A DNA stretch of 32,000 nucleotides from Planctopirus limnophila DSM 3776 (GCF_000092105.1 NC_014148.1:3420001-3452000); one strand, 5' to 3'. Counted from the first letter of the stretch, positions 3,375-23,214 are shown. Notes: generated by a model from the sequence alone, not told the origin. A program made the numbers and translations.

Positions 3375-3451
3375 CTTTCAGATCAAGGCAAGCATATCCA
3401 CGGAGTTGCTCAAGGAGAGACTGTCGAAGGTGCTGGTTCATACCAGAACCC

Positions 3452-7314: not shown

Positions 7315-7596
7315 CGCAGACCTCTCTGGCGGTAGTTAAAAATGAAACTCAATGACTCAGGATGTTTTTCGGGAACAGACTCGGATAAACCATGAACCTC
7401 AAGCACGGCCAAGGTCTCGACCAGGCATTCAGTGATGTCCCCAAAAACAAATCAACACCAATTGATGGTATCAACCTCATGACCTGTCGTCGAATGTGAT
7501 GTTCGACAGATTCTTCCCGATCAAAGAATTGGCGACCTCTCAACATCTGCCATGAATCAGCCACTGCACAAAGGATTTGTGAATGACATTGGTCCA

Positions 7597-8979
7597 TCAC
7601 TCAGACAGGTTTCCTGCTGCTGACGGCGTTCTTCGCTCCAGGATTTGACGCATTTCGAAGACGAGGTCCTGCGATTGAGCCGCTTCATTGAGTAAGAGCC
7701 AGGGATCATCCGGGAGCAGATGCAGTCGTTCCAGTTCTGTGTCGAGTGGCCGCCTGGTGGCATCGCTCCATGGCTGCTCTAAGACTTGATCGTTCGGAGA
7801 ATTGGTGAGGCCTCCTTCGATCCCCTGAGAATCTTCTTGAACTTGCGAACTCAGATACACATAGCCTGGTGTCACCACGCCTCTCCATTGCCGGGCTGTC
7901 GCCTGCCAGATCACATGCTCTCTGCAGGGAAACTTTTCATTAGCATAATCCTGTAACGTTGGTGACGAGTGATTGGCTTTTCGCAGACATCGCTCAATAG
8001 TTGCCGCCACATCATCTTCACTCAGGAGCATGCTCCAGCGAGAACCAGCAGGGAAGACTTTTTGACTGCAGGCCTCAACATTTTGCGTAGAAACCAGAGG
8101 ATCCTGATCGTTTGAGATCTCCACTTCGCATCCAGATTCCCAATAGATCAAGGGAGGCCGAAAACTCATCAACTCCGTCCCCTGAATCCGCTCACTCCCC
8201 GGATGAATCGATTCGATCAGTTCACCAGCTGCAGCAAAGAGCAGCAGTTGGACCGGTCGAGTCGCTGCGAGCACTCGAAGTTCTTCAAAGAGAACCCCCA
8301 GGGCATGATCTATGAGCGAGGCATAACTCCCATAGACTGGCCACAACTCACCCCATTCAGACGAATCAATTTCCTCCAGTGCCCAACCCTGATCTTCAAA
8401 ATCGCCAAAGTAAAGATCAGCCAGTTCTTGAGGAGGAAGCCAAGGCTTGGGAATTCCACGAGAATGGAGCCATAACCAATGCGATTCCCCGCTCTGACCA
8501 TCATCTCTCAGACGTCCCGATGGATCAATCTTTGAATCCAGCTGCTTTAGCCACTCCACTCCACGAGCCACCAGTTTTGGAAATGGAAACTGGCTGGGCG
8601 CCACGTCCAGCCCATCTCCACCACTGACAAACTCCACAGGTGATTTCAGCAGAGCAGGATGCTTTTCCTGCAAGCTCTTTTGTGCAAACTGACTCTCCTC
8701 CTCGACGAACAGGCGGCACCGATTCGCCTGCTCTGCCAGAGTCGATGCTTCCAGCAGTTGAAGCCCCTTCGTCCACCAGGCAGGAATCGTTCCCAGATCC
8801 GGGTCGTGAGAAATCAATCGCTCAAACAGGACTCCCTCCATCACCAGTCGGTCCAAATGGGGAGTTTCCACCCATTGATTTCCGTAAGGACCAAGCGCTG
8901 CCGCTGCTAATCGTTCAAAGCTGACAACGACCACCAGGGGTGCTGCCGATGACGGGTGGAACGATGCATGCGTTGTCAT
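7597..8979 (-). CDS. hypothetical protein, sulfatase/alkaline-phosphatase-fold-like but lacking the catalytic CxPxR
   Basis: The 460-aa ORF is clearly coding by length and context. The N-terminus PLVVVVSFERLAAAALGPYGNQWVETPHLDRLVMEGVLFERL resembles the sulfatase N-terminal block (..VDDLr...lG.YGn..v.TPniDrLa.eGv.F.n.) but has SF in place of DD, and no Cys/Ser-x-Pro-x-Arg follows. The confidence given is for the ORF; confidence in the function is about 0.35. Confidence 0.6.
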   Translation of the reverse strand: MTTHASFHPSSAAPLVVVVSFERLAAAALGPYGNQWVETPHLDRLVMEGVLFERLISHDPDLGTIPAWWTKGLQLLEASTLAEQANRCRLFVEEESQFAQKSLQEKHPALLKSPVEFVSGGDGLDVAPSQFPFPKLVARGVEWLKQLDSKIDPSGRLRDDGQSGESHWLWLHSRGIPKPWLPPQELADLYFGDFEDQGWALEEIDSSEWGELWPVYGSYASLIDHALGVLFEELRVLAATRPVQLLLFAAAGELIESIHPGSERIQGTELMSFRPPLIYWESGCEVEISNDQDPLVSTQNVEACSQKVFPAGSRWSMLLSEDDVAATIERCLRKANHSSPTLQDYANEKFPCREHVIWQATARQWRGVVTPGYVYLSSQVQEDSQGIEGGLTNSPNDQVLEQPWSDATRRPLDTELERLHLLPDDPWLLLNEAAQSQDLVFEMRQILERRTPSAAGNLSE

Positions 8980-9522
8980 TCAGGAAAACTCCACTCAACT
9001 TTGGGCCCATGCTCATTGAACCAGTGATCATTCAGCCTGGGCTCTTATCCACTCATCCTCACCCACAAATCCTGATGATTCATCAGCATGAGAGCGAGGA
9101 GTTCACGTGGCCTCACTTCCAGAACTCATTCGTACAACTCTTGAGAGCGATTGAACAGCCACCCACGGCATGTTGCCAATTGGCCTCATGTTGCCGGAAG
9201 CGAGGCAACAGAACGTAACCTTATTTCCCGCATACAGTTAGATCGATAACTGAGAACCATTCTCCAGACACTGATGCCGAAACACCACGGCGGTGAGGGC
9301 TGGCAACACTTTGTCAAAAGAAAAAGCGGGCTTCTGTCAACAATCATAACTCATTGCCCATAAATACTTTACGACAACAGGTTGACTTTCGGAAACATCC
9401 TCCCTCGCCCTTCCAAATCAATTGGCGCAACAGCTGCTTTACATCTTATCCATCTGGCGAAACACCACACGACGCTGGATCACACAGTTCTCAACACTTT
9501 GAACAACAGAAAGATCTCGATC

Positions 9523-9831
9523 ATGACCAACCTCTTTAACGCCCTCCTGAATGACGAAGCCGGTTTCATTGTTTCTGCTGAACTTGTCCTGGTCTCCACC
9601 ATTGCTGTCCTGGCCATGATCGTCGGCTTGTCAGAAGTCGCCCTCAACATCAACAACGAACTCGAAGACGTCGGTGCTGCCTTTGGCAACATCAACCAGT
9701 CCTACAAGGTGGGTGGACTCGATGGACACATGGGTGGCACCTACGGCTCAAAATACAGCGATCGTCAAGATTTCTGCGACAACTACTGCAACATCGTCCC
9801 TAACGGCGACTTCTCCGGCGAACGCCCATAA
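9523..9831 (+). CDS. Flp-like (type IVb/Tad-type) pilin-like small protein, paralogue 1
   Basis: The start is set at Met 9523 (MTNLFNALLNDEAG|FIVSAELVLVSTIAVLAMIVGL). The leader ends in DEAG and is followed by a Glu-containing hydrophobic helix, like the Flp prepilin motif (..DEsG|ATAIEYgLI..). The 102-aa product has a C-terminal region with 2 Cys (DFCDNYC). Confidence 0.6.
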   Translation: MTNLFNALLNDEAGFIVSAELVLVSTIAVLAMIVGLSEVALNINNELEDVGAAFGNINQSYKVGGLDGHMGGTYGSKYSDRQDFCDNYCNIVPNGDFSGERP

Positions 9832-9967
9832 GCCACTACCATCAACTCTTCACCTTCGACCAGCCACATCGGATTTCAATGCACCTTGAGCAGCAGCTCA
9901 TGGAAATCACGAGATGGCAAACTCTGAATCACTAAACACACTCATCTTGTTTTCGAGGAATTTGCCC

Positions 9968-10288
9968 ATGAATGCTCTTCTGTTTTCCCTGTATCACAAT
10001 GAAGCTGGCTTTATCGTCTCCGCAGAACTCGTACTCGTCGCGACCATCGCGGTCCTCGCCCTTGTCGTTGGACTTTCCGAAGTCGCCCACGCAGTCAATC
10101 AGGAACTGGAAGATGTCGCCACAGCCTTCGGCACTGTCAACCAGAGCTATCGCTATGACGGCCTGACCGGCCACCAGGGTGCGGTCGGCGGCGGTAAATA
10201 CCGTGATTCTCTGGATTTCTGCGACGGCGATCGCGACATCGTCTGCGACGCTCCTTCCGGCGAATCTGGTGGTTACTATAACTACTAA
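9968..10288 (+). CDS. Flp-like pilin-like small protein, paralogue 2
   Basis: The start is set at Met 9968 (MNALLFSLYHNEAG|FIVSAELVLVATIAVLALVVGL). It is about two-thirds identical to paralogue 1 through ...ELEDV..AFG..NQSY...GL.GH.G...G.KY.D..DFCD...IV. The product is 106 aa with 2 Cys. Confidence 0.6.
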   Translation: MNALLFSLYHNEAGFIVSAELVLVATIAVLALVVGLSEVAHAVNQELEDVATAFGTVNQSYRYDGLTGHQGAVGGGKYRDSLDFCDGDRDIVCDAPSGESGGYYNY

Positions 10289-10437
10289 CCATATTGCTAT
10301 ATTTTCCACAGAGACGCCGATTCGCTATTCTTATATAGCACTCATCGATCACCCTGTCAGCGAATCATGTATCGTAATTACTTGACCAACGTCTCGACAT
10401 GACCTAGCGACTTCAAAATATCTCATGAGTCTTTCTG

Positions 10438-10495
10438 CCAGCCGTCCTTTGCCAGCAGTGGCACTTGCAAAAGTGCCCGCCCAAAGGACGGCTGG
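10438..10495. other. nested stem-loop element (14-bp outer stem, 7-bp inner stem with GCAA tetraloop)
   Basis: 10438-10451 ccagccgtcctttg pairs perfectly with 10482-10495 caaaggacggctgg. Inside it, 10460-10466 ggcactt pairs with 10471-10477 aagtgcc around the loop gcaa. The element is intergenic, between the pilin-like genes and tRNA-Ser, and no T-tract follows on either strand. Confidence 0.45.
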
Positions 10496-10907
10496 GTGTG
10501 CTTTCACCAAGCGTCTCCTCAACTCTCGAATCATGGCATCAGGAACCCATACTCACAGAATCTCACGGATAAGTCGGTCGATCTGGCCAGCCCCCGAGCT
10601 CAGACCATTCTTCCAGCCTGCCGCACCATTTCCGCGAAGAAGTCGGTCATCGACCACATTCAAAGTGCGTCCCGCGCAAACACTGAAACAAGGCACGTCG
10701 TCACAGGAAATCGATGGACAATCTCAATCGGTAGACAGTCTCTGGTGTTTCCTGCTGCACAAATCGGCCCGCACCCAGCCCAGCCAGAATTGCCAACAAT
10801 GGATTCGCAGCAGGGACACCTGAGAAGTTTTCACACCGGAAACAGCCCGCTAAACCGCTTGCGAAAACTTGACAGCGGAAAGCCAACCCCTTAACGTCAG
10901 GCAAGCA

Positions 10908-12272
10908 TCAAAAGTACCGCCCGGAGAGATGGCAGAGCGGTTTAATGCACCGGTCTTGAAAACCGGCATACCCGCAAGGGTATCCAGGGTTCGAATCCCT
11001 GTCTCTCCGCTGAGTTTTCTTCAAAAAGCCCCTGGTTTTCAGGGGTTTTTCTTTTTTGCCGGTCTCTTCCGGTAAAACTTCAGAAGTGTCAGGTTTTGCC
11101 TCCAAATGCCCCGTTGTGACGCCTCCGCGCTGCAACTGGCGCTGCAACGGCAGACAATCGACCGCCTTCTTCTGCTCGGCCAGGTCAATGTGCGTGTAAC
11201 GTGCCGCTGTGAGGACAGGCGTTGAATGCCGGGCCAGCTTCTGGGCGGTCGTCAACGAAACGCCGCTTCGTCCCAGGTTCGTGATGAACGTGTGACGCAG
11301 TGCATGAAAATCGGCGTATCGCCCGTTGGCGTCCTTGTAGGGTATGCCCGCTTCCTGGAGATCAAACTTCAAAAGTTTTCCCGCATAGCGATACTTCGCC
11401 CAATCTCCCGGCCACAAAGGTGTTCTTGCAGGCTTGCCGGCAAGCCATACTTGAAGTTCACTCCGCAGCTCTTCCGACAAGGGCAATTCGTCTTCACGCC
11501 GACGCTTGGAGTACGCAGCCCGCACCATCACAGTGGGCGGCGAGCGATCAAGCGAAATACTTTCACGAGTCAAGGAGGCCAGTTCTGACGCCCTCAGGCC
11601 TGTAGCACTCGCGACGAGATACAGCATCCGCCGATCTTCACCCCTGAACCCCAGGTACTCCGCGCCACTGGCTGCCGTTGTCAGCAATAGCGTCAACTCC
11701 GCATCGGAAAGTGCTCGACGATCGTGCCGCCGATCGACTTGCACGTTCAACATTTCGAGACGGACCAAAGGATCTTCCCCGATCCGCTTTTCGAGGCACA
11801 GCCAGCGAGTCAGCTGCTTGATGGCTCTCAAGTAATGGTTCGAAGTTTGGGCACTAATCCCCTGCTTATCCCCCTTCTTTGCTCTCAGATCGGCCAGAAC
11901 TTTGGCAATCGATTCAGCACGAAGTTCTGCCAGACGTCGAACTTTGCAAAGTTCGAGGAGCTTCCGGCAGCGTGTCAGAACCAGGCTGACTTGCCCTTCT
12001 GAAACTTGCTTGGCCCGCAAGGACTGCTCGAACGCCAGGAGATGTTCATCCAGAGATTCGTCCTTGAATCGAGCCGCAGGACTCAACAGCCCGGCCTGAA
12101 TCATGGAAGATTCCCGTTCCAGCTTGGCTGCAAGTTGCTGAGTGGCCCCCTTATCGGTGAAGCCGGGCACAGTCTTCAGTTGGCCGTCATAGTCGCGATA
12201 CCGGACGTACCACTTGCGAACCTTAACGGTCTTGCCGTTCTTCTTGTAAGTCGGTCGATAGATCGAAGCCAC
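10908..12272 (-). CDS. int: tyrosine-type site-specific integrase
   Basis: 454 aa. The N-terminal arm-type domain begins MASIYRPTYKKNGKTVKVRKWYVRYRDYDG. The catalytic region includes LVASATGLRASELASL (Arg I), ADFHALRHTFITNL (H-x-x-R) and ARHSTPVLTAARYTHID (His/Tyr). After the catalytic Tyr the frame stays open for about 95 codons. That tail runs antisense through the terminator hairpin, the att core and the tRNA 5' half before reaching the stop at 10908-10910. Confidence 0.9.
   Translation of the reverse strand: MASIYRPTYKKNGKTVKVRKWYVRYRDYDGQLKTVPGFTDKGATQQLAAKLERESSMIQAGLLSPAARFKDESLDEHLLAFEQSLRAKQVSEGQVSLVLTRCRKLLELCKVRRLAELRAESIAKVLADLRAKKGDKQGISAQTSNHYLRAIKQLTRWLCLEKRIGEDPLVRLEMLNVQVDRRHDRRALSDAELTLLLTTAASGAEYLGFRGEDRRMLYLVASATGLRASELASLTRESISLDRSPPTVMVRAAYSKRRREDELPLSEELRSELQVWLAGKPARTPLWPGDWAKYRYAGKLLKFDLQEAGIPYKDANGRYADFHALRHTFITNLGRSGVSLTTAQKLARHSTPVLTAARYTHIDLAEQKKAVDCLPLQRQLQRGGVTTGHLEAKPDTSEVLPEETGKKEKPLKTRGFLKKTQRRDRDSNPGYPCGYAGFQDRCIKPLCHLSGRYF
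10923..11009 (+). tRNA. tRNA-Ser (anticodon UGA), class II with long variable arm
   Basis: The cloverleaf was folded by hand. Acceptor stem GGAGAGA/TCTCTCC plus discriminator G; anticodon stem CCGGT/ACCGG with loop CTTGAAA (anticodon TGA); variable arm ATACCC-GCAA-GGGTAT; T arm CAGGG-TTCGAAT-CCCTG. CCA is not encoded. TTGACA at 10869-10874 is a possible -35 element. Confidence 0.93.
10952..11021 (+). repeat. attL: left copy of the island direct repeat (3' 58 nt of tRNA-Ser plus trailer)
   Basis: 10952-11013 is identical (62/62) to 23145-23206. The match extends to 11021/23214 with one mismatch (69/70). Confidence 0.9.
11029..11057 (+). terminator. rho-independent terminator downstream of tRNA-Ser (hairpin flanked by an A-tract and a T-tract, so potentially bidirectional)
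   Basis: The stem 11029-11034 cccctg / 11040-11045 cagggg has the loop gtttt and is followed by tttttctttttt. It is preceded by aaaaa, so the minus-strand transcript would also see the hairpin followed by CUUUUU. It lies inside the C-terminal tail of the integrase ORF. Confidence 0.8.
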
Positions 12273-12275
12273 GTT

Positions 12276-12494
12276 CTATCCCTTCCGTTTTTGAAGTGGT
12301 GGGGCCATGGGGACTGGGCACCCTGCCGCAATCCATTCCTGAATATCCGAAACTCTCCAGCGTGTCGATTTACCGACGCGGACAGGTGCAGGCAGTTTCC
12401 CCGCACTCCGCATCCGCCAAAGCGTTCTCAATGAGATGCTCAGCATACTCGCGACACTCTCCGCTGTCGCCAGTATTGGGTTGTTCTGATCCAT
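12276..12494 (-). CDS. xis: AlpA/MerR-like helix-turn-helix excisionase-type DNA-binding protein
   Basis: The start is set at Met 12494 (MDQNNPILATAESVASMLSISLRTLWRMRSAGKLPAPVRVGKSTRWRVSDIQEWIAAG). This matches the typical AlpA/excisionase pattern (LS.S.RT..R....G.fP.P...G....W...dI..Wi). It ends 3 nt upstream of the integrase start. Confidence 0.8.
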   Translation of the reverse strand: MDQNNPILATAESVASMLSISLRTLWRMRSAGKLPAPVRVGKSTRWRVSDIQEWIAAGCPVPMAPPLQKRKG

Positions 12495-12563
12495 CAGAGT
12501 TTCCTTTGCAAATTCATTTGTTCCAAAAGAGTTTTTAACACCCACATTACAAGCCATAAATAC

Positions 12564-12854
12564 CTAGCTCGCTCGCCTCATTATGGTTTCCAATTCATCG
12601 AAGGAGATACCTTCTTCTTGAGTATCCAAACGGCTTAGGATGACGCTAATTTCAATAAGGCCGGTTACTGGATCGACTTTATTGTCGATCATCACTCCTC
12701 GTTGAAAAAGCTCCTGCAAGTACTCGAAAGCCTCGTTGTCCGATCTGATTCGAAGGCCTTCTTTTGCTGCGAAGAGAACAACCATCGGTTTGAAATCTTC
12801 CAAAATCATCAATAAACGTTTTCGATCTCTACGGGCTTTGCGTTCTCGACTCAT
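12564..12854 (-). CDS. hypothetical protein (96 aa), translationally coupled to the upstream rep-like gene
   Basis: The start Met at 12854 overlaps the stop of the 12851..14140 ORF in an ATGA arrangement (12851-12854 tcat on the + strand). The N-terminus is basic (MSRERKARRDRKR). No family was recognised. Confidence 0.55.
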   Translation of the reverse strand: MSRERKARRDRKRLLMILEDFKPMVVLFAAKEGLRIRSDNEAFEYLQELFQRGVMIDNKVDPVTGLIEISVILSRLDTQEEGISFDELETIMRRAS

Positions 12855-14140
12855 GATTCGGATTCCTTTCCGGAAGTAGAGGTATCGATTTCTGTGCCCC
12901 CGGAACTCCCCGGGTAACCCAGTTGAATCGATTTCACAGCGAGCTTGCTTTGAAAGTCGTGTTGATCGAAATACCAACGCACTTGATCAGACATGGAGGC
13001 CAGTGCGTCTTGTAGCGTGAGTAACCGTTCTCTTGCGGCATATCCCACCAGGCAGCCAGCGACGTGGTTCACATACCAGGTGCTGTCAGCAGAAGCGGTA
13101 TCAAGCGTTCGCTCCAGATTCATCAATGACCCGAATTGATCGGCACATGATTGCACGACCTCCCACCAGGGAAGCACTGTGCGGCGGCTCGTGTTGCAGT
13201 CATCTTGTGCCCGCAGAGAGAACCAGTCTTCGGTGAGGTACTGCCATAATCCCCCGACTTTCTCAATCAGATGATCCAGTTGATCAATGCCAAACTGTTT
13301 GAGAATCTCCCGGCGTAGCTGATACTCAATTCGCCAGACATGCGTTTCCGGCTCAACATTCCAAAGCTCGTAGAACCAGAGCTTGGTACCCCCTTTGAGA
13401 ACTTCCAGGCCCTTGTCATAGATTCTCAATTGAATCGGTGATTTCTTGGCGCCGTGATAAAACGTCTCCAGTGAATCGCCAGTCATATTGTGAGAATGCT
13501 GCACATGCTGCGGGACTCGATGACTCAGGAGAAATGGCAGACTCAGAGGGTCTTTGAGTTGAAGATCAACGGCCAGATCACACCGGCTCGGTTTGATCGA
13601 TCGCACTTTTCCTTCCAGAAGCTCAATCCAACGAACCATCAGATTGACCGCACTGGAGATTCCCATCGACCAGAGCGTTTTCGCATTGATCGAAACATAA
13701 CCATTGGGAGTGTTTCTGTAAGGTTCAGCACTGCGTCCCAGATAGAGATGAAACTCCGGCCATTGGAGATGCCAGCGATAGCTGGGTGGCTTACCACTGG
13801 GGAGGATGAGGAAATGATCGCCAAAGATCGGAACACCTTGAGTTCCTGCGGCCTGCTCCTTGGCTTGATCGAGAATCTGAGTCAGATCCGACCAGTTTGA
13901 ACTCCACTCGATGTAAAGGCCCAGGTCGAGTGTATCAACGCCGCAAATCAGAGGAACAGGAAGGTGATTCTTCTCCCCATTTGTAAAGGGGGCTAGGCGT
14001 GTTACAGACAATGCCTCGCCCCCATGCCGTTGCATGGGATTTTGTTGAGAATCGCCTATTGGGTGTTCTTCAGAAGAAAACTTCTGGGGAATATCGCACC
14101 AGGAATTGTTCTCCTTGCGCGAGAAACTCTCGTCACACAT
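12851..14140 (-). CDS. replication initiation protein, Rep_trans-like (rolling-circle/phage CRI-type initiator family)
   Basis: 429 aa carrying the spaced motif series typical of the replication initiation factor family: PSRCDLAVDL, then TFYHGAKKSPIQLRIYDKGLE, then HVWRIEYQLRRE. Confidence 0.65.
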   Translation of the reverse strand: MCDESFSRKENNSWCDIPQKFSSEEHPIGDSQQNPMQRHGGEALSVTRLAPFTNGEKNHLPVPLICGVDTLDLGLYIEWSSNWSDLTQILDQAKEQAAGTQGVPIFGDHFLILPSGKPPSYRWHLQWPEFHLYLGRSAEPYRNTPNGYVSINAKTLWSMGISSAVNLMVRWIELLEGKVRSIKPSRCDLAVDLQLKDPLSLPFLLSHRVPQHVQHSHNMTGDSLETFYHGAKKSPIQLRIYDKGLEVLKGGTKLWFYELWNVEPETHVWRIEYQLRREILKQFGIDQLDHLIEKVGGLWQYLTEDWFSLRAQDDCNTSRRTVLPWWEVVQSCADQFGSLMNLERTLDTASADSTWYVNHVAGCLVGYAARERLLTLQDALASMSDQVRWYFDQHDFQSKLAVKSIQLGYPGSSGGTEIDTSTSGKESES

Positions 14141-14774
14141 GAAATCGCTCGCCCATTGAAATGAAGAAACTGTTTACGACGATTGTCGAAACAGCTTCAG
14201 CTGCCTGCTTTACAGGCCAGAAACATGGGCGGGGGCGAGCCTATCAACAAAAATATCCGCGCTACCAAAGACTCAGCAGTAACCACAAAAAAGACCGTGC
14301 AAAACGATCCCCCACTGAGCGGTGCATTCAACGGTGCGGAAAGCTCGGCGACAAACTGTCGCTTTTAAATAATGTATCCCATGCTCTGTGCTGAACTCTC
14401 AACCCAGGAACATCCTGGAACTGAACGGCACCCATTCAACTTGAACCATGATTTCAATAGAATCATTACCAACTTGAATTCGACACCGCCGAAAAAAGGT
14501 TATCCGCAACTTTCCAGTTGTCTAGGGGAGTTTCTCAGAATTGTAATCACTACATCATTTGTATTTATAATTGCAAATATCTCTCTTCTATTGGCCTTGC
14601 AGGCCGTTCGGTCACTCCGCTCCGATCTCCGGACTCCGCTTACGCTGCGCCGGAATCTTCGCTGCGTTCCCTCACGCCTCATAAGCCAGAAAGGCCGAGC
14701 GAAACACGCCTCAGCCCAGGCTGGCACCTTTGAGGGGTGCCCGTCGCCTGATCTGAGGGTTTCCACTAGGGGCC

Positions 14775-16322
14775 GTGAGTGATGCCGGGTTTTCCAGAAC
14801 ACTCATCGATGGTATGAAGGCCAACCCCTCTGATATATTGCGGGCTCCCTTAGGAGCCACAGACCGCATGTTCGAACAAGCCTTCAAAAATATCGACGAC
14901 GTCCTGCGAAAAGAGTCCGGTTGCACGACCGAACTCGATTACACCGAGCAAACCTCCTGGCTGCTCTTCCTCAAGTATCTCGACGGGCTGGAACAGGACA
15001 AAGCCGACGAAGCCGCCCTGGAGGGGAAGAAGTACACCTTCATCCTCGACCCGCCCTATCGCTGGGAGGCGTGGGCTGCTCCCAAGGGGAAAGACGGCCT
15101 GATCGATCACAACCGGGCACAGACCGGCGACGACCTGCGCGACTTCGTCAACGAGAAGCTCTTCCCTTATCTCCACGGGTTCAAGCAGAAAGCCATCGGG
15201 CCGAACACCATCGAGTACAAAATTGGTGAAATCTTCGGCGAGATCAAAAACAAAATCTCCAGCGGCTACAACCTGCGAGAAATTATCGATCACATCGATG
15301 AACTGCGGTTCCGCTCGCAGACCGAGAAGCACGAGCTGTCGCATCTCTACGAAGCCAAGATCAAGAACATGGGCAACGCCGGGAGGAACGGCGGCGAGTA
15401 TTACACGCCCCGTCCCCTCATCCGGGCAATGATCCAAGTGGTGAAACCGAAGATCGGCGAACGGATCTACGATGGCGCGGTCGGCTCGGCGGGCTTCCTG
15501 TGCGAGGCGTTCGAGTATCTGAGAGCGAAGCGAGGTTTAACAACCAAAGAGGCCAAGACGCTGCAGGAGAAGACGTTCTACGGCAAAGAGAAAAAGTCGC
15601 TGGCCTACGTCATCGCGATCATGAACATGATCCTGCATGGCATCGAAGCGCCGAACATCGTCCACACCAATACGCTGACGGAGAACCTCGCGGATATCCA
15701 GGAGAAGGATCGTGTCGACGTGGTGCTGGCCAATCCACCATTTGGCGGCAAGGAACGAAAGGAGGTTCAGCAGAACTTCCCCATCCGCACAGGCGAGACC
15801 GCGTTCCTGTTCTTGCAGCACTTCATCAAGATTCTGAAAGCGGGGGGACGGGGCGGCGTGGTCATCAAGAACACGTTCCTCTCGAATACCGACAACGCCT
15901 CGGTGAGTTTGCGGAAGCTGCTGCTCGAGAGCTGCAACCTGTACGCCGTGCTCGATTGCCCCGGCGGCACGTTCCAGGGGGCGGGCGTGAAGACCGTCGT
16001 GCTCTTCTTTGAGAAGGGAGCACCAACGCGGAAAGTCTGGTTCTACCAGCTCGACCCAGGCCGCAACCTGGGCAAGACGAACCCGCTCAACGATGCCGAT
16101 TTGGCTGAGTTCATCGAATTGCAGGCGACCTGCGCCGATTCGCCGAAGTCGTGGAGTGTGGAGGCCACCACGATCGACCAATCGACATTCGACCTGTCGG
16201 TGAAGAACCCCCACGGCGGCGAGGAAGTGACGCATCGCAGCCCCGAAGAGATCATGGACGAGATCGCCGCCTTGGACGCCGAGAGTGCCGAAGTCCTGCA
16301 AACCATCCGGGGGCTGATATGA
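14775..16322 (+). CDS. hsdM: type I restriction-modification system, DNA methyltransferase subunit M (N6-adenine)
   Basis: Motifs present are an HsdM N-terminal block (TEQTSWLLFLKYLD), a SAM-binding motif (IYDGAVGSAGFL) and the catalytic VLANPPFGG. The ORF-track start is GTG at 14775; ATG at 14814 or 14868 are equally plausible. The stop overlaps the hsdS start (ATGA at 16319-16322). Confidence 0.92.
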   Translation: MSDAGFSRTLIDGMKANPSDILRAPLGATDRMFEQAFKNIDDVLRKESGCTTELDYTEQTSWLLFLKYLDGLEQDKADEAALEGKKYTFILDPPYRWEAWAAPKGKDGLIDHNRAQTGDDLRDFVNEKLFPYLHGFKQKAIGPNTIEYKIGEIFGEIKNKISSGYNLREIIDHIDELRFRSQTEKHELSHLYEAKIKNMGNAGRNGGEYYTPRPLIRAMIQVVKPKIGERIYDGAVGSAGFLCEAFEYLRAKRGLTTKEAKTLQEKTFYGKEKKSLAYVIAIMNMILHGIEAPNIVHTNTLTENLADIQEKDRVDVVLANPPFGGKERKEVQQNFPIRTGETAFLFLQHFIKILKAGGRGGVVIKNTFLSNTDNASVSLRKLLLESCNLYAVLDCPGGTFQGAGVKTVVLFFEKGAPTRKVWFYQLDPGRNLGKTNPLNDADLAEFIELQATCADSPKSWSVEATTIDQSTFDLSVKNPHGGEEVTHRSPEEIMDEIAALDAESAEVLQTIRGLI

Positions 16323-17560
16323 AGGCTGGATGGATATACAAGACGCTAGACGACGTTTGCGAATTCAATAATGGACTTTGGAAGGGAGAGAAGCCACCCT
16401 TCGTCACAGTTGGCGTAATAAGGAACACCAACTTCACGAAAGAAGGCACGTTAGATGATTCCGACATTGCCTATATTGAGGTTGAGGCAAAGAAATTCGA
16501 GAAACGTCGCTTGGTCTTTGGCGACCTAATCTTGGAGAAGTCGGGGGGGGGGCCGAAGCAACCAGTAGGACGTGTTGCGCTCTTCGACAAAAGGGCGGGG
16601 GATTTTTCCTTCAGCAACTTCACAGCTGCGATACGCGTGAAAGATCCGAAAACGTTGGACTTCCGCTTTCTGCACAAGTTTCTTTTCTGGACGCACTTGT
16701 CTGGTGTCACAGAAACGATGCAGAGCCATTCGACAGGTATTCGAAATCTCAATGGCGACGTTTACAAATGCATTGAGGTACCGCTTCCCCCGCTGACCGA
16801 GCAGCGGCGGATTGTGGGGATTCTTGACGAAGCGTTTGAGGGCCTCGCCACCGCCAAAGCGAACGCCGAAAAGAACCTCCAAAACGCCCGCGCCCTCTTC
16901 GAAAGCCACCTCCAGGCCGTCTTCACCCAACGCGGCGACGGGTGGGTGGAGAAAACTGTGAAGGACGTTGCCTCGCCAATCAAAGGCTCAATTCGCACTG
17001 GACCTTTCGGTAGTCAATTACTGCACAGCGAGTTCGTTGATGAAGGTATTGCTGTTCTCGGCATCGACAACGCCGTCGCCAATGAATTCCGCTGGGGAAA
17101 AAGCCGGTTCATCACGAAAGACAAGTTCGGCCAGCTTGAGCGCTACCGAGTGTATCCCGGAGATGTGCTGATAACGATCATGGGAACATGTGGCCGCTGC
17201 GCGGTTGTTCCGGACGACATTCCGACCGCGATCAATACAAAGCATATCTGCTGCATCACGCTTGACTGGAAAAAGTGCTTGCCGAGCTACCTCCACCTCT
17301 ACTTCCTACACGCACAACAGTCGCAAGCATTCTTAGCGAAACATGCCAAGGGCGCAATCATGGCTGGACTGAACATGGGCCTAATTCAAGAGCTTCCGGT
17401 ATTGCTCCCACCGACTCAGGTTCAGTCAGCAATCGTCGAAGCAGCCAACGATCTCCGCGAAGAAACCCAACGCCTCGAATCCCTCTACCAGCGCAAGCTC
17501 GCCGCGCTCGATGAATTGAAAAAGTCACTGCTGCACCGCGCCTTCAGCGGGGAACTGTAG
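16319..17560 (+). CDS. hsdS: type I restriction-modification system, specificity subunit S
   Basis: The start is set at ATG 16319 (MKAGWIYKTLDDVCEFNNG), overlapping the hsdM stop. There are two target-recognition domains separated by the conserved central helix LPPLTEQRRIVGILDEAFEGL, and a C-terminal conserved helix (QRLESLYQRKLAALDELKKSLLHRAFSGEL). The 56 codons upstream in the ORF track (16151-16318) lie inside hsdM and are not used. Confidence 0.9.
   Translation: MKAGWIYKTLDDVCEFNNGLWKGEKPPFVTVGVIRNTNFTKEGTLDDSDIAYIEVEAKKFEKRRLVFGDLILEKSGGGPKQPVGRVALFDKRAGDFSFSNFTAAIRVKDPKTLDFRFLHKFLFWTHLSGVTETMQSHSTGIRNLNGDVYKCIEVPLPPLTEQRRIVGILDEAFEGLATAKANAEKNLQNARALFESHLQAVFTQRGDGWVEKTVKDVASPIKGSIRTGPFGSQLLHSEFVDEGIAVLGIDNAVANEFRWGKSRFITKDKFGQLERYRVYPGDVLITIMGTCGRCAVVPDDIPTAINTKHICCITLDWKKCLPSYLHLYFLHAQQSQAFLAKHAKGAIMAGLNMGLIQELPVLLPPTQVQSAIVEAANDLREETQRLESLYQRKLAALDELKKSLLHRAFSGEL
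16543..16552 (+). repeat. homopolymeric G10 tract inside the hsdS coding sequence
   Basis: The sequence reads tc-gggggggggg-cc at 16541-16554 and encodes ..EKSGGGPKQ.. (codons 75-78 of HsdS). It is the longest homopolymer I noticed in the window. Confidence 0.95.
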
Positions 17561-17574
17561 GAGATGCCCATATC

Positions 17575-18987
17575 ATGATCACCACTCCCGAACAAATCGA
17601 CGCCTGGCGTGCGGCACGCTCGGAACATCAAAACCTCGAATTCAAAGAGGCCAAGAACCAATTCGATAACCGCAAGCTCTTCCGCTATTGCGTCGCTTTG
17701 GCCAACGAAGGGGGCGGGCACTTGCTGCTGGGAATCGAAGACGTTCCACCTCGCAAAGTGGTGGGAACGGCTGCATTCAACGATCCGGTGGAGATGGCCG
17801 CGAAGATATTTCAAACTTTGAACTTTCGAGTCGAAATCGAGGAAGTTGCTCATCCCGATGGCCGTGTTCTCGTGTTTCATATCCCCAGCCGGCCCTTGGG
17901 AACCGCCTATCAATACGAAGGTGCTTACCTGATGCGGGCGGGCGAAGAGCTTGTCGCGATGAGCGAAGATCGCTTGCGGCAAATCTTTTCCGAAGGTCAA
18001 CCTAATTGGCTTTCACAACCCGCAAAGACCGATGCCAGTGACGATGAGGTCATTGCGTTGCTCGACACGCAGGCTTACTTCGACCTGATGAAGTTGCCCT
18101 ATCCTACCCAACGAACGGGCGTTCTGGAAAGATTGGCGAGCGAAGGATTGATCAAAGGCGACTCGAATGGGTGGGAGATTTCGAACCTCGCTGCCATTCT
18201 TCTGGCGAAAAGACTCGATGGGTTCTCGCACGCACTGGCAAGGAAAGCGCCCCGTGTGGTGATCTACGACGGTGTGAACAAACTCAAGACAAAAGATGAC
18301 AAACCCGGAATGCGGGGCTACGCCGTAGGATTCGAGGCGTTAGTGGACTTTGTGCATTCGGCCGCACCGCAGAATCGGTTCATCGAAGAAGCCGTGCGAA
18401 AAGAAGTCAAAATGTTCCCGAAGCAAGCCCTTCGCGAACTTATTGCGAATGCACTTGTTCATCAAGACTTTCTGATGACCGGAGCATCCGTGATGATCGA
18501 GATGTACGACGATCGAGTGGAAATCTCGAATCCCGGACTTCCACCGATCCAGGTCGAGCGATTCATTGATGAGTATCGCTCCCGAAACGAACGCCTGGCC
18601 GATCTGATGCGTCGGCTGGGAATCTGCGAGGAGAAAGGCAGTGGCATCGACAAGGTGATCAGTGCGTCGGAAGTGTTTCAACTTCCCGCCCCAGATTTTC
18701 GCGCCGGAGAGTTGCGAACCACGGCTGTCCTGTTCGCCCATCAAGATTTTCCGGTCATGACAAAGGCGGATCGCATCCGAGCGTGCTATCAGCACTGTTG
18801 CTTGCAGTACGTGAGCGGGCAGCGGATGTCAAATCAGTCGCTCCGGCAGCGGTTCGGAGTGGACGATTCAAAAGTTGCAACCGTGTCGTTGGTGATCACC
18901 GCGACGAAAGACGAAGGTCTGATCAAAGCGGATGATTCTGAAAGCAGTTCGACTCGTTACGCTCGGTATCTGCCGTTCTGGGCGTAA
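17575..18987 (+). CDS. AlbA_2 (Schlafen-like) / HATPase_c_4 ATP-binding protein with C-terminal wHTH, embedded in the R-M operon
   Basis: 470 aa. The N-terminal block EHQNLEFKEAKNQFDNRKLFRYCVALANEGGGHLLLGIED is typical of the AlbA_2 putative DNA-binding domain. The central block KQALRELIANALVHQDF...IEMYDDRVEISNPGLPP...RSRNERLADLMRRLGICEEKGSGIDKV is typical of the RecG-C-terminal-like HATPase_c_4 module. GGAG lies 11 nt upstream of the ATG, and the gene starts 15 nt after the hsdS stop. Confidence 0.8.
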   Translation: MITTPEQIDAWRAARSEHQNLEFKEAKNQFDNRKLFRYCVALANEGGGHLLLGIEDVPPRKVVGTAAFNDPVEMAAKIFQTLNFRVEIEEVAHPDGRVLVFHIPSRPLGTAYQYEGAYLMRAGEELVAMSEDRLRQIFSEGQPNWLSQPAKTDASDDEVIALLDTQAYFDLMKLPYPTQRTGVLERLASEGLIKGDSNGWEISNLAAILLAKRLDGFSHALARKAPRVVIYDGVNKLKTKDDKPGMRGYAVGFEALVDFVHSAAPQNRFIEEAVRKEVKMFPKQALRELIANALVHQDFLMTGASVMIEMYDDRVEISNPGLPPIQVERFIDEYRSRNERLADLMRRLGICEEKGSGIDKVISASEVFQLPAPDFRAGELRTTAVLFAHQDFPVMTKADRIRACYQHCCLQYVSGQRMSNQSLRQRFGVDDSKVATVSLVITATKDEGLIKADDSESSSTRYARYLPFWA

Positions 18988-19082
18988 GTGCTTTAATGCA
19001 AAAGGAAATCCACAACCACCTAAGACGCAATGTATTGACATGAAAAGACTTGTGCTCTTTAACGCAATCCAGAATGCATGCT

Positions 19083-19229
19083 CTGAACGAAGCCAAAACC
19101 AGAGCCGACCGCATCAACACCACGCGCGCCGGTGCCAGTTGGGGAGTCATCGAAGGAAACCGTATGTGGCAGGGATATCCGATTGCTATGAGACTTCTCG
19201 AAGGCTTTAGCCAGTGCGGCACAGCTTGA
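19083..19229 (+). pseudogene. decayed 5' fragment of a second hsdR allele (first about 48 codons, start codon lost)
   Basis: Translated in frame, it reads (L)NEAKTRADRINTTRAGASWGVIEGNRMWQGYPIAMRLLEGFSQCGTA*. This aligns without gaps to the N-terminus of the intact HsdR at 20345 (MNEAETRAEHIDPALAAAGWGVVAGSRIRREYPIAPGRLEGFGRRGK), at about 50 percent amino-acid identity by hand count. ATG is replaced by CTG, and similarity ends at a TGA at 19227-19229. Confidence 0.7.
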
Positions 19230-19280
19230 TCAACGAATTTAGTAGACCGAGTTTTCACTGGGGCACTCCAGGAACCGCAG

Positions 19281-20339
19281 ATGGCCGACGAAACACCTCC
19301 CTCCGAGATGATTCTGTACCAGACCGAAGATGGCAGGACTCGCATCCAGTGCCGCTTCGAGAACGAAACCATTTGGCTGACGCAGGCCCTGATCGCTGAA
19401 TTGTTCCAGGTCACTCCGCAAAACGTGACACTCCATCTGAAGGCGATCTACCGGGAAGGGGAACTCGACGAGGGGGCAACTTGTAAGGATTGCTTACAAG
19501 TTCGATCCGAAGGAGGCCGCGAAGTCACTCGCAAACTTCGCCATTACAGCCTGCCTGTCATTCTGGCCGTTGGTTATCGCGTTCGCAGTCATCGCGGCAC
19601 CCAGTTTCGCCAGTGGGCGACGGCCCGCTTGAGCGAATACCTGGTCAAAGGGTTCGCGATGGACGACGAGCGGCTCAAGAATCCGCCCGGCAAAGGTCAA
19701 AAAGACTACTTCGACGAGCTGCTGGAACGCATTCGAGACATCCGCTCCAGCGAACGGCGGTTCTATCAGAAAGTCCTCGACATTTATGCGACCAGTGTCG
19801 ATTACTCGCCGAAAACGGAGACCTCGCAGGAGTTCTTCGCCACAGTGCAAAACAAAATGCACTGGGCGGCACACGGTCACACTGCCGCCGAAGTGATCCA
19901 TCGCCGAGCCGACGCCAACCAGCCACTGATGGGAATGAAATCAACCCGTCCGGGCGGTGTGATCCGCAAAGATGATGTCTCAATCGCCAAGAACTACCTC
20001 AACGAGGACGAACTGCAGGCTTTGAATCGCATCGTCAATGCCTATCTCGAATTTGCCGAGCTGCAGGCGCTCAACCGAAAACCGATGACAATGGTCGACT
20101 GGATCGTCAAACTGGATGATTTCCTGAAGTTGTCGGGACGTGAATTGCTGCAACACGCTGGAAAAATTTCCGCTGAAGACGCCCGCAACAAGGCAGAAGC
20201 CGAGTACGCGCGCTATCGACAGTTTTTAGACTCCCAGCCGCGCCGAGTGGACGACGACCTGGAGCAAGCCGCAAAAGAGATTCAGAAACTTCCGAAGCCG
20301 AAAAGGCCAAGAAAACCCAAAGACGGCAGTGAAGGTTGA
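19281..20339 (+). CDS. rhuM: RhuM-family protein (virulence protein RhuM-like), embedded in the R-M operon
   Basis: 352 aa. The N-terminal and central blocks are characteristic of the RhuM family: MILYQTEDGRTRIQCRFENETIWLTQALIAELFQVTPQNVTLHLKAIY, YSLPVILAVGYRVRSHRGTQFRQWATARLSEYLVKGF and DYFDELLERIRDIRSSERRFYQKV. Its stop lies 5 nt before the hsdR ATG. Confidence 0.85.
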   Translation: MADETPPSEMILYQTEDGRTRIQCRFENETIWLTQALIAELFQVTPQNVTLHLKAIYREGELDEGATCKDCLQVRSEGGREVTRKLRHYSLPVILAVGYRVRSHRGTQFRQWATARLSEYLVKGFAMDDERLKNPPGKGQKDYFDELLERIRDIRSSERRFYQKVLDIYATSVDYSPKTETSQEFFATVQNKMHWAAHGHTAAEVIHRRADANQPLMGMKSTRPGGVIRKDDVSIAKNYLNEDELQALNRIVNAYLEFAELQALNRKPMTMVDWIVKLDDFLKLSGRELLQHAGKISAEDARNKAEAEYARYRQFLDSQPRRVDDDLEQAAKEIQKLPKPKRPRKPKDGSEG

Positions 20340-20344
20340 ACACC

Positions 20345-22780
20345 ATGAACGAGGCGGAAACCAGAGCCGAACACATCGACCCAGCGCTCGCCGCCGCTGG
20401 CTGGGGAGTCGTTGCAGGGAGCCGTATTCGGCGGGAGTACCCCATCGCTCCAGGACGGCTTGAAGGGTTTGGCCGGCGCGGGAAATCACTTACTGCCGAT
20501 TACGTGTTGGAATACCGCAATACAAAACTCGCTATCGTCGAGGCCAAGGCCTGGGATGAAGAACTGACCGAAGGGGTCGGCCAGGCAAAGAACTATGCCG
20601 AAAAACTCGAAGTTCGCTTCACTTACTCGACCAATGGACAAGGGATCTACGGCATCGACATGCGGGAGGGAACCGAAGAGGAAGTCCCCCGATATCCGAC
20701 ACCCGATGAACTGTGGAATCTTACTTTCGCCGAACAGAACGCCTGGCGCGACCGATTCGCCGCGATTCCGTTTGAAGACCGGGGCGGCTACTTCCAGGGC
20801 CGCTACTATCAGGACATCGCCATCGAGCGGGTACTGGAAGCCATCGCCGCCGGGAAGCCGCGAATTCTGCTCACACTGGCGACCGGTACGGGCAAGACGT
20901 TCATCGCGTTTCAACTCGCCTGGAAGCTGTTCCAGAGCCGCTGGAATCTGAGCCGCGAACCGTCACGCCGTCCACGCATTCTGTTCCTCGCCGATCGAAA
21001 CATTCTTGCCAACCAGGCCTTCAATGCCTTTTCCGCTTTCCCGGAAGATGCAATGGTGCGGATCGAACCAGGCGAAATCAAAAAGAAAGGCAAAGTCCCC
21101 AAGAACGGCAGCCTGTTCTTCACGATCTTCCAGACGTTCATGAGTGGACCACCCAAAAACGGTGAGCCGTCCCCCTACTTCGGCGAATATCCGGCGGACT
21201 TTTTCGACTTCATTGTCATCGACGAATGCCATCGGGGCGGCGCAAACGACGAAAGCACCTGGCGCGGCATCCTCGACTATTTCGCTCCTGCCGTGCAGCT
21301 CGGCCTGACCGCGACGCCCAAGCGGAAAGACAACGTCGACACCTATGCATACTTCGGCGAACCCGTCTACGTCTATTCGCTGAAAGATGGCATCAACGAC
21401 GGCTTCCTGACGCCGTTCAAGGTGAAGCAGATTTCCACCACGCTGGATAACTACATCTACACTGCTGACGACGAACTGATCGAAGGAGAGATTGAGGAGG
21501 GCAAGCGGTACGAGGAGAAAGACTTCAACACGATCATCGAGATCCGCGAACGGGAAGCGTATCGTGTGAAGTTGTTTATGGAGTTAATCGACCAGCGGCA
21601 GAAGACTCTTGTCTTCTGTGCCACTCAGATTCATGCGCTGGTAGTTCGCGACCTGATCAATCAGATCAAGACGAGCAAAGAACCGAACTACTGTGTTCGT
21701 GTGACCGCAGATGATGGCAGCCTGGGGGAACAGTATCTGCGGGACTTTCAGGACAACGAAAAAAGTATTCCGACGATTCTGACGACATCGCAAAAGCTCT
21801 CGACTGGCGTCGATGCGCGAAACGTGCGAAATATTGTGCTGATGCGGCCAATCAAGTCCATCATCGAATTCAAGCAGATCGTCGGCCGCGGGACTCGCCT
21901 CTACGACGGTAAGGATTACTTTACGATCTACGATTTCGTCGAGGCTCATCACCATTTTGCCGACCCCGAATGGGACGGCGAACCAGTCGATGATGAACCA
22001 TGCGAGAAGTGTGGACAGAATCCTTGTGAATGCATAAAGCCCCCCTCTCAGCCGTGCGAAGAATGCGGGGAAAGCCCATGCGTTTGTGTTCCAAACCCGT
22101 GCTCGAATTGCGGCAAACAGCCGTGCGAATGCCCCCGGGAGCCATGTTCCCAATGCGGGAAAATGCGGTGCAAGTGCCAGCGCAAACGCATCACAAGGGT
22201 CAAACTGGCCGACGGCAAGGAACGAACGATCCAGCACATGATGGCAACGAGCTTTTGGCATCCGGATGGAACACCCATGTCGGCTCAGCAATTCATGCAA
22301 AGCCTATACGGCAAATTCCCCGACTTCTTCAGCGACGAGACCGAACTACGAACGCTGTGGAGTTCGCCGGACACACGGGCCAAACTGCTGGAAGGGCTGG
22401 CAGAAAAAGGATTCGGCTCCGACCAGATGGCTGAGATGCAACGGATCATCGACGCCGAAAAGAGCGACCTGTTTGACGTGTTGGCCCACGTTGCCTTTGC
22501 CCTGACACCGCTGACCCGCGAAGAACGCGCCGCCCGTGCAAAGCTGGAAATTAGTACTCACTTCGATGACAAGCGGCAGGCATTTCTTGCATTTGTGCTG
22601 GCGCAATACGTGAAGGAAGGCGTGGGCGAACTGGACTCGGACAAACTCGGCCCACTGCTGAAACTCAAATACAACAATGCCATCGCGGATGCGGTCATCG
22701 ACCTGGGACGCCCCGAAGAGATTGGCAAAGTGTTCAATGGATTCCAGAAATTCCTTTACCAGTCGCAAACCGTTGTTTGA
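20345..22780 (+). CDS. hsdR: type I restriction enzyme, R subunit (EcoEI-like architecture: HSDR_N nuclease, SF2 helicase, EcoEI_R_C tail) with a Cys-rich insertion
   Basis: The start is set at ATG 20345 (MNEAETRAEHIDPALAAAGW); the track uses TTG at 20336. The nuclease core is ADYVL...AIVEAK. Helicase motif I is LATGTGKTFIAF, motif II is VIDECHRG, and the run continues with LGLTATPKR and later motifs. The C-terminal block SDLFDVLAHVAFALTPLTREERA is typical of the EcoEI R C-terminal domain. A 4x CxxCGxxxCxC block lies at 21998-22180. Confidence 0.9.
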   Translation: MNEAETRAEHIDPALAAAGWGVVAGSRIRREYPIAPGRLEGFGRRGKSLTADYVLEYRNTKLAIVEAKAWDEELTEGVGQAKNYAEKLEVRFTYSTNGQGIYGIDMREGTEEEVPRYPTPDELWNLTFAEQNAWRDRFAAIPFEDRGGYFQGRYYQDIAIERVLEAIAAGKPRILLTLATGTGKTFIAFQLAWKLFQSRWNLSREPSRRPRILFLADRNILANQAFNAFSAFPEDAMVRIEPGEIKKKGKVPKNGSLFFTIFQTFMSGPPKNGEPSPYFGEYPADFFDFIVIDECHRGGANDESTWRGILDYFAPAVQLGLTATPKRKDNVDTYAYFGEPVYVYSLKDGINDGFLTPFKVKQISTTLDNYIYTADDELIEGEIEEGKRYEEKDFNTIIEIREREAYRVKLFMELIDQRQKTLVFCATQIHALVVRDLINQIKTSKEPNYCVRVTADDGSLGEQYLRDFQDNEKSIPTILTTSQKLSTGVDARNVRNIVLMRPIKSIIEFKQIVGRGTRLYDGKDYFTIYDFVEAHHHFADPEWDGEPVDDEPCEKCGQNPCECIKPPSQPCEECGESPCVCVPNPCSNCGKQPCECPREPCSQCGKMRCKCQRKRITRVKLADGKERTIQHMMATSFWHPDGTPMSAQQFMQSLYGKFPDFFSDETELRTLWSSPDTRAKLLEGLAEKGFGSDQMAEMQRIIDAEKSDLFDVLAHVAFALTPLTREERAARAKLEISTHFDDKRQAFLAFVLAQYVKEGVGELDSDKLGPLLKLKYNNAIADAVIDLGRPEEIGKVFNGFQKFLYQSQTVV

Positions 22781-23144: not shown

Positions 23145-23214
23145 GGTCTTGAAAACCGGCATACCCGCAAGGGTATCCAGGGTTCGAATCCCTGTCTCTC
23201 CGCTGACTTTTCTT
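23145..23214 (+). repeat. attR: right copy of the direct repeat (displaced 3' fragment of tRNA-Ser, not a functional tRNA)
   Basis: It has the same sequence as 10952-11021 but lacks the 5' acceptor strand, the D arm and most of the 5' strand of the anticodon stem (upstream flank ...aaaacgtcattt). Confidence 0.9.

Follow-up and report, generated by a model that had tools for sequence, protein, structure and literature searches.

A predicted type IB restriction-modification operon with Schlafen and RhuM genes nested between hsdS and hsdR on a tRNA-Ser island of Planctopirus limnophila

The 32,000-nucleotide (nt) stretch of Planctopirus limnophila DSM 3776 analysed here (NC_014148.1:3420001-3452000; hereafter the window, with positions counted from its first letter) carries a 12.2 kb island that is integrated at a tRNA-Ser gene and bounded at both ends by 70-nt repeats, and which holds hsdM, hsdS, a gene encoding a Schlafen/GHKL/winged helix-turn-helix (wHTH) protein (passenger 1), a RhuM-family gene (passenger 2) and hsdR, in that order and in the same orientation (Table 1). 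An initial annotation of the window had assigned these families and described five co-oriented genes with a single 293-nt gap. Both descriptions hold, as the gap lies at 18988-19280 and the families are recovered in Pfam as N6_Mtase with HsdM_N, two copies of Methylase_S, SLFN_AlbA_2 with HATPase_c_4, Virulence_RhuM (E = 5e-115), and ResIII with EcoEI_R_C, respectively. Two sets of loci, cited below by number, were set beside the window: 80 genomic loci from many phyla carrying orthologues of passenger 1 that are 59-87% identical (the Schlafen set), and 80 metagenomic loci for RhuM (the RhuM set). The nearest relatives are metagenome-assembled genomes (MAGs) of Planctomycetaceae.

Table 1. Features of the island, with positions in the window, strand and basis of assignment (ORF, open reading frame; aa, amino acids).
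Feature	Position	Strand	Basis
Tyrosine integrase ORF, 3' end crossing attL and tRNA	10908..12272	-	Pfam Phage_integrase E = 2e-17; ORF list
tRNA-Ser(tga), island integration target	10923..11010	+	ARAGORN
attL, left 70-nt direct repeat, 3' part of tRNA	10952..11021	+	Repeat search, 99% identity to 23145-23214
HTH_17 gene, AlpA/excisionase-like	12276..12557	-	Pfam PF12728 E = 5e-11
429-aa island ORF without assigned function	12851..14140	-	Weak PHROG match 'replication initiation protein' E = 1e-4
hsdM, type I methyltransferase subunit	14868..16322	+	Pfam N6_Mtase E = 6e-62 and HsdM_N; full-length PADLOC MTase_I; conserved ATGTTTGAACAAG start
hsdS, specificity subunit, two target-recognition domains	16319..17560	+	Pfam Methylase_S x2; PADLOC Specificity_I
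Passenger 1, prokaryotic Schlafen 'Schlatpase-HTH', 470 aa	17575..18987	+	Pfam PF04326 and PF13749, motifs, AlphaFold2, Foldseek
Native 95-nt Schlafen-hsdR spacer	18988..19082	+	Homologous to spacers of L005, L025, L042; length equal to L005
hsdR 5' pseudogene, ~45 codons	19083..19219	+	Repeat search, tblastn, translation
hsdS 3'-tail pseudogene, left end of incoming RhuM-hsdR segment	~19220..19271	+	Aligns with window hsdS end (17510-17560) and L001 scar
Passenger 2, RhuM-family, 352 aa, PADLOC candidate PDC-S05	19281..20339	+	Pfam PF13310; PADLOC PDC-S05
hsdR, type IB (EcoAI/FtnUII family) restriction subunit, apparently intact	20345..22780	+	NCBIfam NF046051; Pfam ResIII and EcoEI_R_C
attR, right 70-nt direct repeat, island end	23145..23214	+	Repeat search and sequence inspection

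Judged from its genes, the restriction-modification (R-M) operon is predicted to be an intact type IB system of the EcoAI/EcoEI family. HsdR scores 805.6 bits over residues 1-806 on the EcoAI/FtnUII equivalog model NF046051 (cut-off 550), and it is on this score that we regard the system as apparently intact. The protein has the type IB set of N-terminal nuclease, superfamily 2 (SF2) helicase and EcoEI_R_C domains, and is encoded together with an HsdM bearing N6_Mtase and HsdM_N and an HsdS with two target-recognition domains. The locus resembles known EcoAI/EcoEI systems in all three subunits, whereas the hsdS-hsdR junction of canonical type IB operons is free of passengers. As first annotated, hsdM and hsdS overlap in an ATGA (16319-16322). 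The start proposed for hsdM, GTG 14775, is less likely than ATG 14868, because the MFEQ N-terminus is conserved in relatives. The hsdS gene ends in TAG at 17558-17560 and passenger 1 begins at ATG 17575; the GGAG credited to passenger 1 is present (17560-17563), but the distance from hsdS is 14 nt and not 15. The RhuM stop codon (20337-20339) precedes the hsdR ATG (20345) by 5 nt, as had been reported, and an alternative hsdR start at TTG 20336 would create a TTGA overlap with RhuM. By ORF coordinates the RhuM stop and the hsdR start overlap by 4 nt in L042, L081, L102, L150 and L158, which represent two type I families. The arrangement suggests that translational coupling of RhuM to hsdR is of long standing.

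Passenger 1 comprises an SLFN/AlbA_2 nuclease domain (PF04326, 54.6 bits against a threshold of 25.3), a GHKL ATPase-like domain (PF13749, HATPase_c_4/GHKL, 82.8 bits against 26) and a C-terminal wHTH. Its translation contains E17-HQNL-E22-F-K24 (EHQNLEFK), which fits the Ex4(E/D)xK motif defined as catalytic in prokaryotic Schlafens (PMC13056530), and which phmmer aligned with ESQLVEFK of human SLFN11 (E = 0.0075). Among 50 homologues, E17, E22 and K24 never vary and the conservation of D56 is 90% or higher, while the E288-x3-N292 N-box and G355-S-G357 of the GHKL domain are also invariant; E288 and N292 correspond to E314 and N318 of RzAgo. The AlphaFold2 model (predicted local distance difference test, pLDDT, 74.9; the GHKL region is of low confidence) was matched by Foldseek to 3lmm, the uncharacterised protein DIP2311 of the same architecture (E = 8e-18), and to the N-domains of SLFN13, SLFN11, SLFN5 and SLFN14 (5yd0, 7zel and 7fex at E 1e-4 to 3e-4), and the C-terminus of the model resembles MarR/ArsR-type winged helices. 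Because domains, motifs and fold matches agree, we assign passenger 1 to the SLFN and GHKL 'Schlatpase' supradomain with a C-terminal HTH.

This assignment places passenger 1 in a well-populated class. SLFN/HisKinase-HTH is the commonest bacterial Schlafen architecture, accounting for 19.2% of prokaryotic Schlafen (pSlfn) proteins (PMC13056530), and the majority of Schlatpases are small HTH-bearing proteins (bioRxiv 10.64898/2026.05.29.728809). Bacterial Schlafens are proven tRNase defence effectors (PMC13056530; PMC13552941; bioRxiv 10.64898/2026.05.29.728809): RorSlfn5 cleaves tRNA (PMC13056530), and tRNA cleavage with phage protection is known for RorSlfn5, EcoSlfn7, RzAgo and Cash, all of other architectures than passenger 1. 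The GHKL domain of the Argonaute fusion belongs to the same Pfam family (E-x3-N), and its binding of ATP drives tetramerisation and so assembles the nuclease (bioRxiv 10.64898/2026.05.29.728809). Passenger 1 shares with the pSlfn and Schlatpase proteins (Perez Taboada et al., Nat Microbiol 2026, PMC13056530) the Ex4(E/D)xK nuclease, the E-x3-N of PF13749, the C-terminal HTH and a defence-island setting. It differs in that the characterised members sense through an Ig-like domain, DUF262, an Argonaute core or the CARF-like Csx15, and in that its own clade is very often embedded after hsdS.

In passenger 2, a wHTH-like domain at the N-terminus is followed by a conserved helical domain and a basic tail. 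It matches PF13310 over its full length (383.6 bits; threshold 33.7) and, across residues 4-337, the PADLOC candidate family PDC-S05 (484.8 bits, E = 3e-146). The RhuM family numbers 28,670 representatives at 50% clustering. Candidate active-site residues are the polar positions that are near-invariant among diverse homologues (R155, S157, E158, D174, Y175, Q190, N191, E204, R209, K237 and N238). A profile search meant to reach more distant homologues returned sequences 69-89% identical. In E. coli B, a PDC-S05 gene taken from a cold-seep metagenome lowered plating about 1000-fold for T7 and T5, and about 10-fold for T4 (bioRxiv 10.1101/2024.09.26.614923). Given this anti-phage homologue and the bacterial Schlafen tRNase effectors, the remark in the initial annotation that neither passenger family has a demonstrated role is outdated. 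A 2013 study described RhuM-like genes within R-M operons and predicted that they are toxins (PMC3710099), and such genes are enriched beside hsdS invertons (PMC9881135). Passenger 2 resembles the tested gene in being a full-length match and a single gene, and belongs to a family already recorded in such settings; by contrast, the tested homologue is one gene from a cold-seep metagenome, whereas passenger 2 ends immediately before hsdR and is flanked by a scar.

Several other identities for RhuM were considered and set aside. As a Fic/Doc toxin it finds no backing, since hhalign of its profile against SoFic gave a probability of 0.1% and no Pfam Fic family appeared at E<=10, the two halves of the protein returning PF13310 alone at E up to 10. 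A HEPN RNase reading of R287-x4-H292 was rejected, as the motif is not conserved in diverse homologues and RhuM is not classed as HEPN in PMC3710099. A Bro-N/KilA-N-like N-terminus, backed by no tool, is not claimed. Searches of RhuM against PHROGs found no match. C-terminal extensions in the family representatives P0383 and P0366 look like chimeric gene calls and were disregarded. Tandem RhuM pairs occur in the metagenomic loci L123, L124, L153 and L081.

The predicted toxin domain of RhuM bears on the proposal that the passengers are selfish addiction genes of toxin type, which mainly stabilise the island or the restriction operon and do not act against phage. Carriage on a mobile island would suit such genes, and one RhuM homologue bears the annotation 'toxin-antitoxin system, toxin component, Fic family'. 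However, no antitoxin-sized ORF adjoins either passenger, RhuM has no profile similarity to the Fic protein, and relatives have demonstrated anti-phage phenotypes, such that we regard this explanation as very improbable.

A regulatory or housekeeping role is scarcely better placed, and we hold it to be quite unlikely. Here the Schlafen protein would be a wHTH transcription factor of the operon or island, and RhuM a DNA-binding 'virulence' or antirepressor-like protein. Both passengers do have wHTH-like domains, the family of passenger 1 carries the older database labels 'ATP-dependent DNA helicase RecG', 'ATP-binding protein' and 'putative DNA binding domain-containing protein', and 30% of pSlfn genes lie away from any known defence gene (PMC13056530). 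Upstream of hsdM there are, moreover, three direct repeats of TGAGGGNTNCC (14731-14786), 22-23 nt apart, and a 22-nt AT-rich palindrome ATTTGTATTTATAATTGCAAAT (14557-14578), which may be candidate operator sites. When a conserved operator was sought upstream of hsdM, though, the repeats were present but the region proved not to be conserved among relatives sharing the passenger. The invariant nuclease and GHKL motifs would be needless in a plain repressor, and the strong horizontal spread (>60-70% identity across phyla) and defence-rich neighbourhoods also argue against a regulatory function.

The 293-nt gap between the passengers is a recombination scar, and records how the locus was put together. 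An hsdR remnant had already been recognised there, and is borne out: 19084-19219 is 71% identical to 20346-20481 over 136 nt (tblastn E ~1e-10), with CTG in place of the ATG start and an in-frame stop at 19227, after 48 codons. There is, in addition, a remnant of the hsdS 3' tail, with an 11-nt deletion and its TAG stop changed to CAG, which the last 9 nt of the gap separate from the RhuM ATG. As an hsdR 5' remnant is followed by an hsdS 3' tail, the RhuM-hsdR segment must derive from a donor locus of the order hsdS-RhuM-hsdR, and was joined inside the resident hsdR. The closest relative, L001 (Planctomycetaceae MAG JBJXEX010000216.1; 83-89% identity for four of the five proteins), has the five genes of the window plus SoFic (PADLOC E = 5e-119) between RhuM and hsdR, and reads Slfn / scar / RhuM / scar / SoFic / hsdR at 8461-11120, where RhuM and SoFic are each preceded by an hsdR 5' remnant. 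In its first scar the two pieces meet at a 9-nt microhomology, CCGCGCTCG, common to hsdR codons 12-16 and the hsdS tail. The junctions in the window and in L001 are compatible with one ancestral scar that was later eroded.

This scar bears directly on a coupled pair of sensor ATPase and effector, as suggested by the initial annotation, in which the GHKL/wHTH Schlafen would sense infection and RhuM would execute the response. The passengers are adjacent and co-oriented in the window, the order is the same in L001 and L042, and the pair recurs in L048, L006 and L055. Yet these (L001, L006, L042, L048 and L055) are the only 5 of 80 Schlafen loci in which the two are adjacent, and adjacency is found in 1 of 80 RhuM loci (L090), so that the lack of conserved co-occurrence largely refutes the idea. 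Further, hsdR'/'hsdS scars lie between the passengers in the window, L001 and L042, from which it follows that the two genes were acquired separately; each passenger has close orthologues in numerous other settings; the Schlafen protein has an intact nuclease motif of its own; and a RhuM homologue works as a single gene. We therefore judge a two-gene system to be extremely improbable.

Scars of this kind are not confined to the window. When 100-aa segments of 38 full-length HsdR proteins were searched against their own loci, the N-terminal segment gave 11 extra-genic matches (E ~1e-4 to 1e-39), of which 10 lie on the same strand and upstream of hsdR (E ~1e-5 to 1e-39), and all other segments together gave 7 marginal ones; the eleventh N-terminal match, in L078, was marginal and is discounted. 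Of the 37 loci whose hsdR is full-length, 8 have remnants of the hsdR 5' end ahead of passengers, among them the window, L001 (two), L042, L062, L071, L081 (three) and L085. The most elaborate array spans 150-6100 of L081 (contig Ga0209702_10000001), where copies of the hsdR 5' end at 152-218, 3365-3471 and 4598-4804 precede the live one (5877-6083), hsdS 3' tails lie at 302-368 and 1275-1341, and hsdR and hsdS pieces separate successive passengers. One of these hsdR copies shares 96% identity with the start of the live gene, and among the passengers are two diverged copies of RhuM (46% and 79% identical to that of the window). In L062 (9813-9992) and L071 (286-387), which belong to another type I family, an hsdR 5' remnant of 63 and 35 codons, respectively, ends no more than ~10 nt from the Schlafen start, and the Schlafen gene itself can thus be an incoming cassette.

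We infer that the scars reflect repeated homology-anchored recombination between type I loci, or deletions between tandem loci, which stack cassettes upstream of hsdR. Each passenger, once added, would lie behind a residual hsdR start and, in some cases, an hsdS tail, and the scars in this way display the build-up of nested loci. Exchange may proceed by homology-anchored, partly illegitimate recombination, and the hsdS-hsdR junction may function as an integron-like defence array. A wider proposition, which we advance tentatively and consider rather doubtful as it stands, is that the exchange and upstream stacking of defence cassettes bounded by the conserved hsdS 3' and hsdR 5' ends is a general assembly mechanism, of which the arrays in L001 and L081 would be examples. 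Linked to it is the possibility that Schlatpase-HTH acts as a PrrC-like guard of the type I complex. If general, the scars would explain why the hsdS-hsdR junction is a hotspot, and would serve as a simple signature by which further embedded defence genes could be recognised in sequence. A search for hsdR remnants or truncations as cassette scars yielded no relevant description in the searchable literature. This signature of cassette stacking is possibly the sole new element of the locus, which otherwise joins known kinds of gene in a known arrangement.

Both passenger families, already catalogued as anti-phage genes that stand alone, recur in type I loci, in accordance with the initial annotation and with earlier reports (PMC3710099; PMC9881135; bioRxiv 10.1101/2024.01.29.577857). 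With iterated profiles, an hsd-like gene was detected within 6 kb of the Schlafen gene in 41 of 80 loci, and hsd genes lie near RhuM in 26 of 80. Downstream of Schlafen, the closest large gene is of HsdR type in 22 of 67 loci; upstream, the closest gene encodes HsdS in 13 of 68 loci and an MmeI-type enzyme in 4 loci; and the complete order hsdM/S - Schlafen - hsdR occurs in 13 of the 48 loci that have at least 3 kb on either side; about 27-30% of the orthologues are fully embedded. HsdR is the next large gene after RhuM in 10 of 58 loci. Embedding of Schlafen spans at least two type I families, one with an HsdR of ~780 aa and EcoEI_R_C, the other with an HsdR of ~1030-1100 aa, HSDR_N and T1RH-like_C, and across two type I families the hsdS-Schlafen spacing is 14-18 nt or a 4-nt overlap. 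The arrangement hsdM-hsdS-'ATP-binding protein'-hsdR also appears, as annotated in RefSeq, on plasmid pACNA2.1 of Acidovorax carolinensis. In the Schlafen protein tree, type I families, MmeI-type and restriction-free contexts are intermixed, and intact Schlafen genes stand beside a decayed hsdR in L006, L029, L018 and L039. Each passenger family is frequently, but not obligately, associated with type I loci.

Two observations concern the wider neighbourhoods of the Schlafen set. In the cyanobacterial loci L011, L014, L019 and L028 (~7100-10000), a ~70%-identical Schlafen gene lies directly 3' of an MmeI-family (type IIL) enzyme of ~930-960 aa, which takes the place of type I genes. Elsewhere in the set, GT4-conflict and AEP-TOTE 'conflict system' domains occur among the neighbours.

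Defence genes embedded between hsdS and hsdR are a published theme, exemplified by PrrC, TgvAB (PMC11411939), DarTG2 (PMC12255303) and 'guilt-by-embedding' (bioRxiv 10.1101/2024.01.29.577857). The window shares with PrrC/EcoprrI, RloC and the rlo genes, TgvAB of V. cholerae VPI-2 and DarTG2 of enteropathogenic E. coli (EPEC) the placement of such genes at this junction, co-oriented and probably co-transcribed, and PrrC, as a tRNA-targeting suicide nuclease carried as a passenger, also offers a functional analogy for the Schlafen protein. This likeness raises the question of whether the Schlafen protein, and perhaps RhuM, is a PrrC-like guard that stays latent on the type I complex and is released when a phage anti-restriction protein disables that complex. 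Passenger 1 occupies the position of prrC, in two type I families it keeps a conserved, translationally coupled spacing from hsdS, about 27-30% of its orthologues are fully embedded, Schlatpase-HsdS fusions are reported from Poribacteria (bioRxiv 10.64898/2026.05.29.728809), and an analogous link between HEPN proteins and R-M systems has been argued (PMC3710099). Nevertheless, PrrC joins an ABC-ATPase to a HEPN domain (Rx4-6H), whereas passenger 1 joins Schlafen to GHKL and R287-x4-H292 of RhuM is not conserved. PrrC is, moreover, almost exclusively embedded in type I loci and regulated by the restriction complex, whereas the Schlafen clade is embedded in about a third to half of cases, about half of its close orthologues having no hsd gene within 6 kb, and RhuM likewise falls short of near-exclusive embedding. 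Orthologues shift among type I families, MmeI-type and restriction-free contexts, intact Schlafen copies persist next to hsdR pseudogenes, and a RhuM homologue and other Schlafens protect without a restriction partner. On balance a guard function appears unlikely, though it is the alternative that we take most seriously.

We instead consider it probable that the window holds an intact type IB operon on a tRNA-Ser island, with two independent single-gene defence modules of abortive type at the hsdS-hsdR junction. An accessory defence role for the passengers, as put forward in the initial annotation, is the best reading of the evidence. By analogy with its homologues, passenger 1 would be a Schlafen tRNase whose GHKL domain would bind ATP, drive oligomerisation and assemble the nuclease, whose wHTH domain or domains would sense a cue of infection, and which, once activated, would cut tRNA and halt translation. 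RhuM/PDC-S05, again judging by homologues, would be a second toxic effector able to protect alone. Co-transcription of these genes would then supply DNA restriction and two back-up layers from one mobile unit.

Some observations weigh against this reading. The very tight hsdS-Schlafen spacing, together with the HsdS-Schlatpase fusions, hints at real coupling to the restriction complex, which tells against a model of autonomous modules because such a model does not require coupling. Two Schlafen-histidine-kinase fusions gave no protection against the phage panel of PMC13056530, and the defence role of Schlatpase-HTH consequently draws on relatives with other sensors. For RhuM, AlphaFold2 with 40 homologues reached a pLDDT of 51.7, exceeding 70 solely in the N-terminal wHTH-like part; Foldseek found no match in PDB for this low-confidence model, and phmmer and two profile searches against PDB returned a marginal Ntox15 match (E = 0.009) and noise. 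Lastly, the five genes are probably co-transcribed, judging from their spacing, and a promoter and terminator scan was uninformative, returning 0 promoters and no more terminators than shuffled sequence.

The locus is a textbook-style case of defence genes nested in a restriction operon, and so mostly confirms current thinking. It also shows Schlatpase-HTH, the most frequent of the bacterial Schlafen architectures, in a clean natural setting, and, as this gene begins 14 nt after hsdS, the question of whether it guards restriction is directly testable.

The remaining features of the island agree with the mobility ascribed to it at the outset: the tRNA-Ser(tga) gene, the pair of 70-nt direct repeats, the integrase and the HTH_17 gene are all present, and the flanks code for ordinary chromosomal genes. 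The integrase ORF, on the minus strand, extends ~275 nt beyond the catalytic domain through attL and the entire tRNA-Ser (10908-11021), and excision would alter the integrase C-terminus. No family was matched by the 429-aa ORF in Pfam or PADLOC; given its weak PHROG match, the island may be replication-competent or satellite-like. Farther downstream, a 702-aa ORF on the minus strand (28353-30461) matches no Pfam family and lies in a region of unusual strand composition, with a GC skew of +0.25 and an AT skew of -0.28 across 29001-30000.

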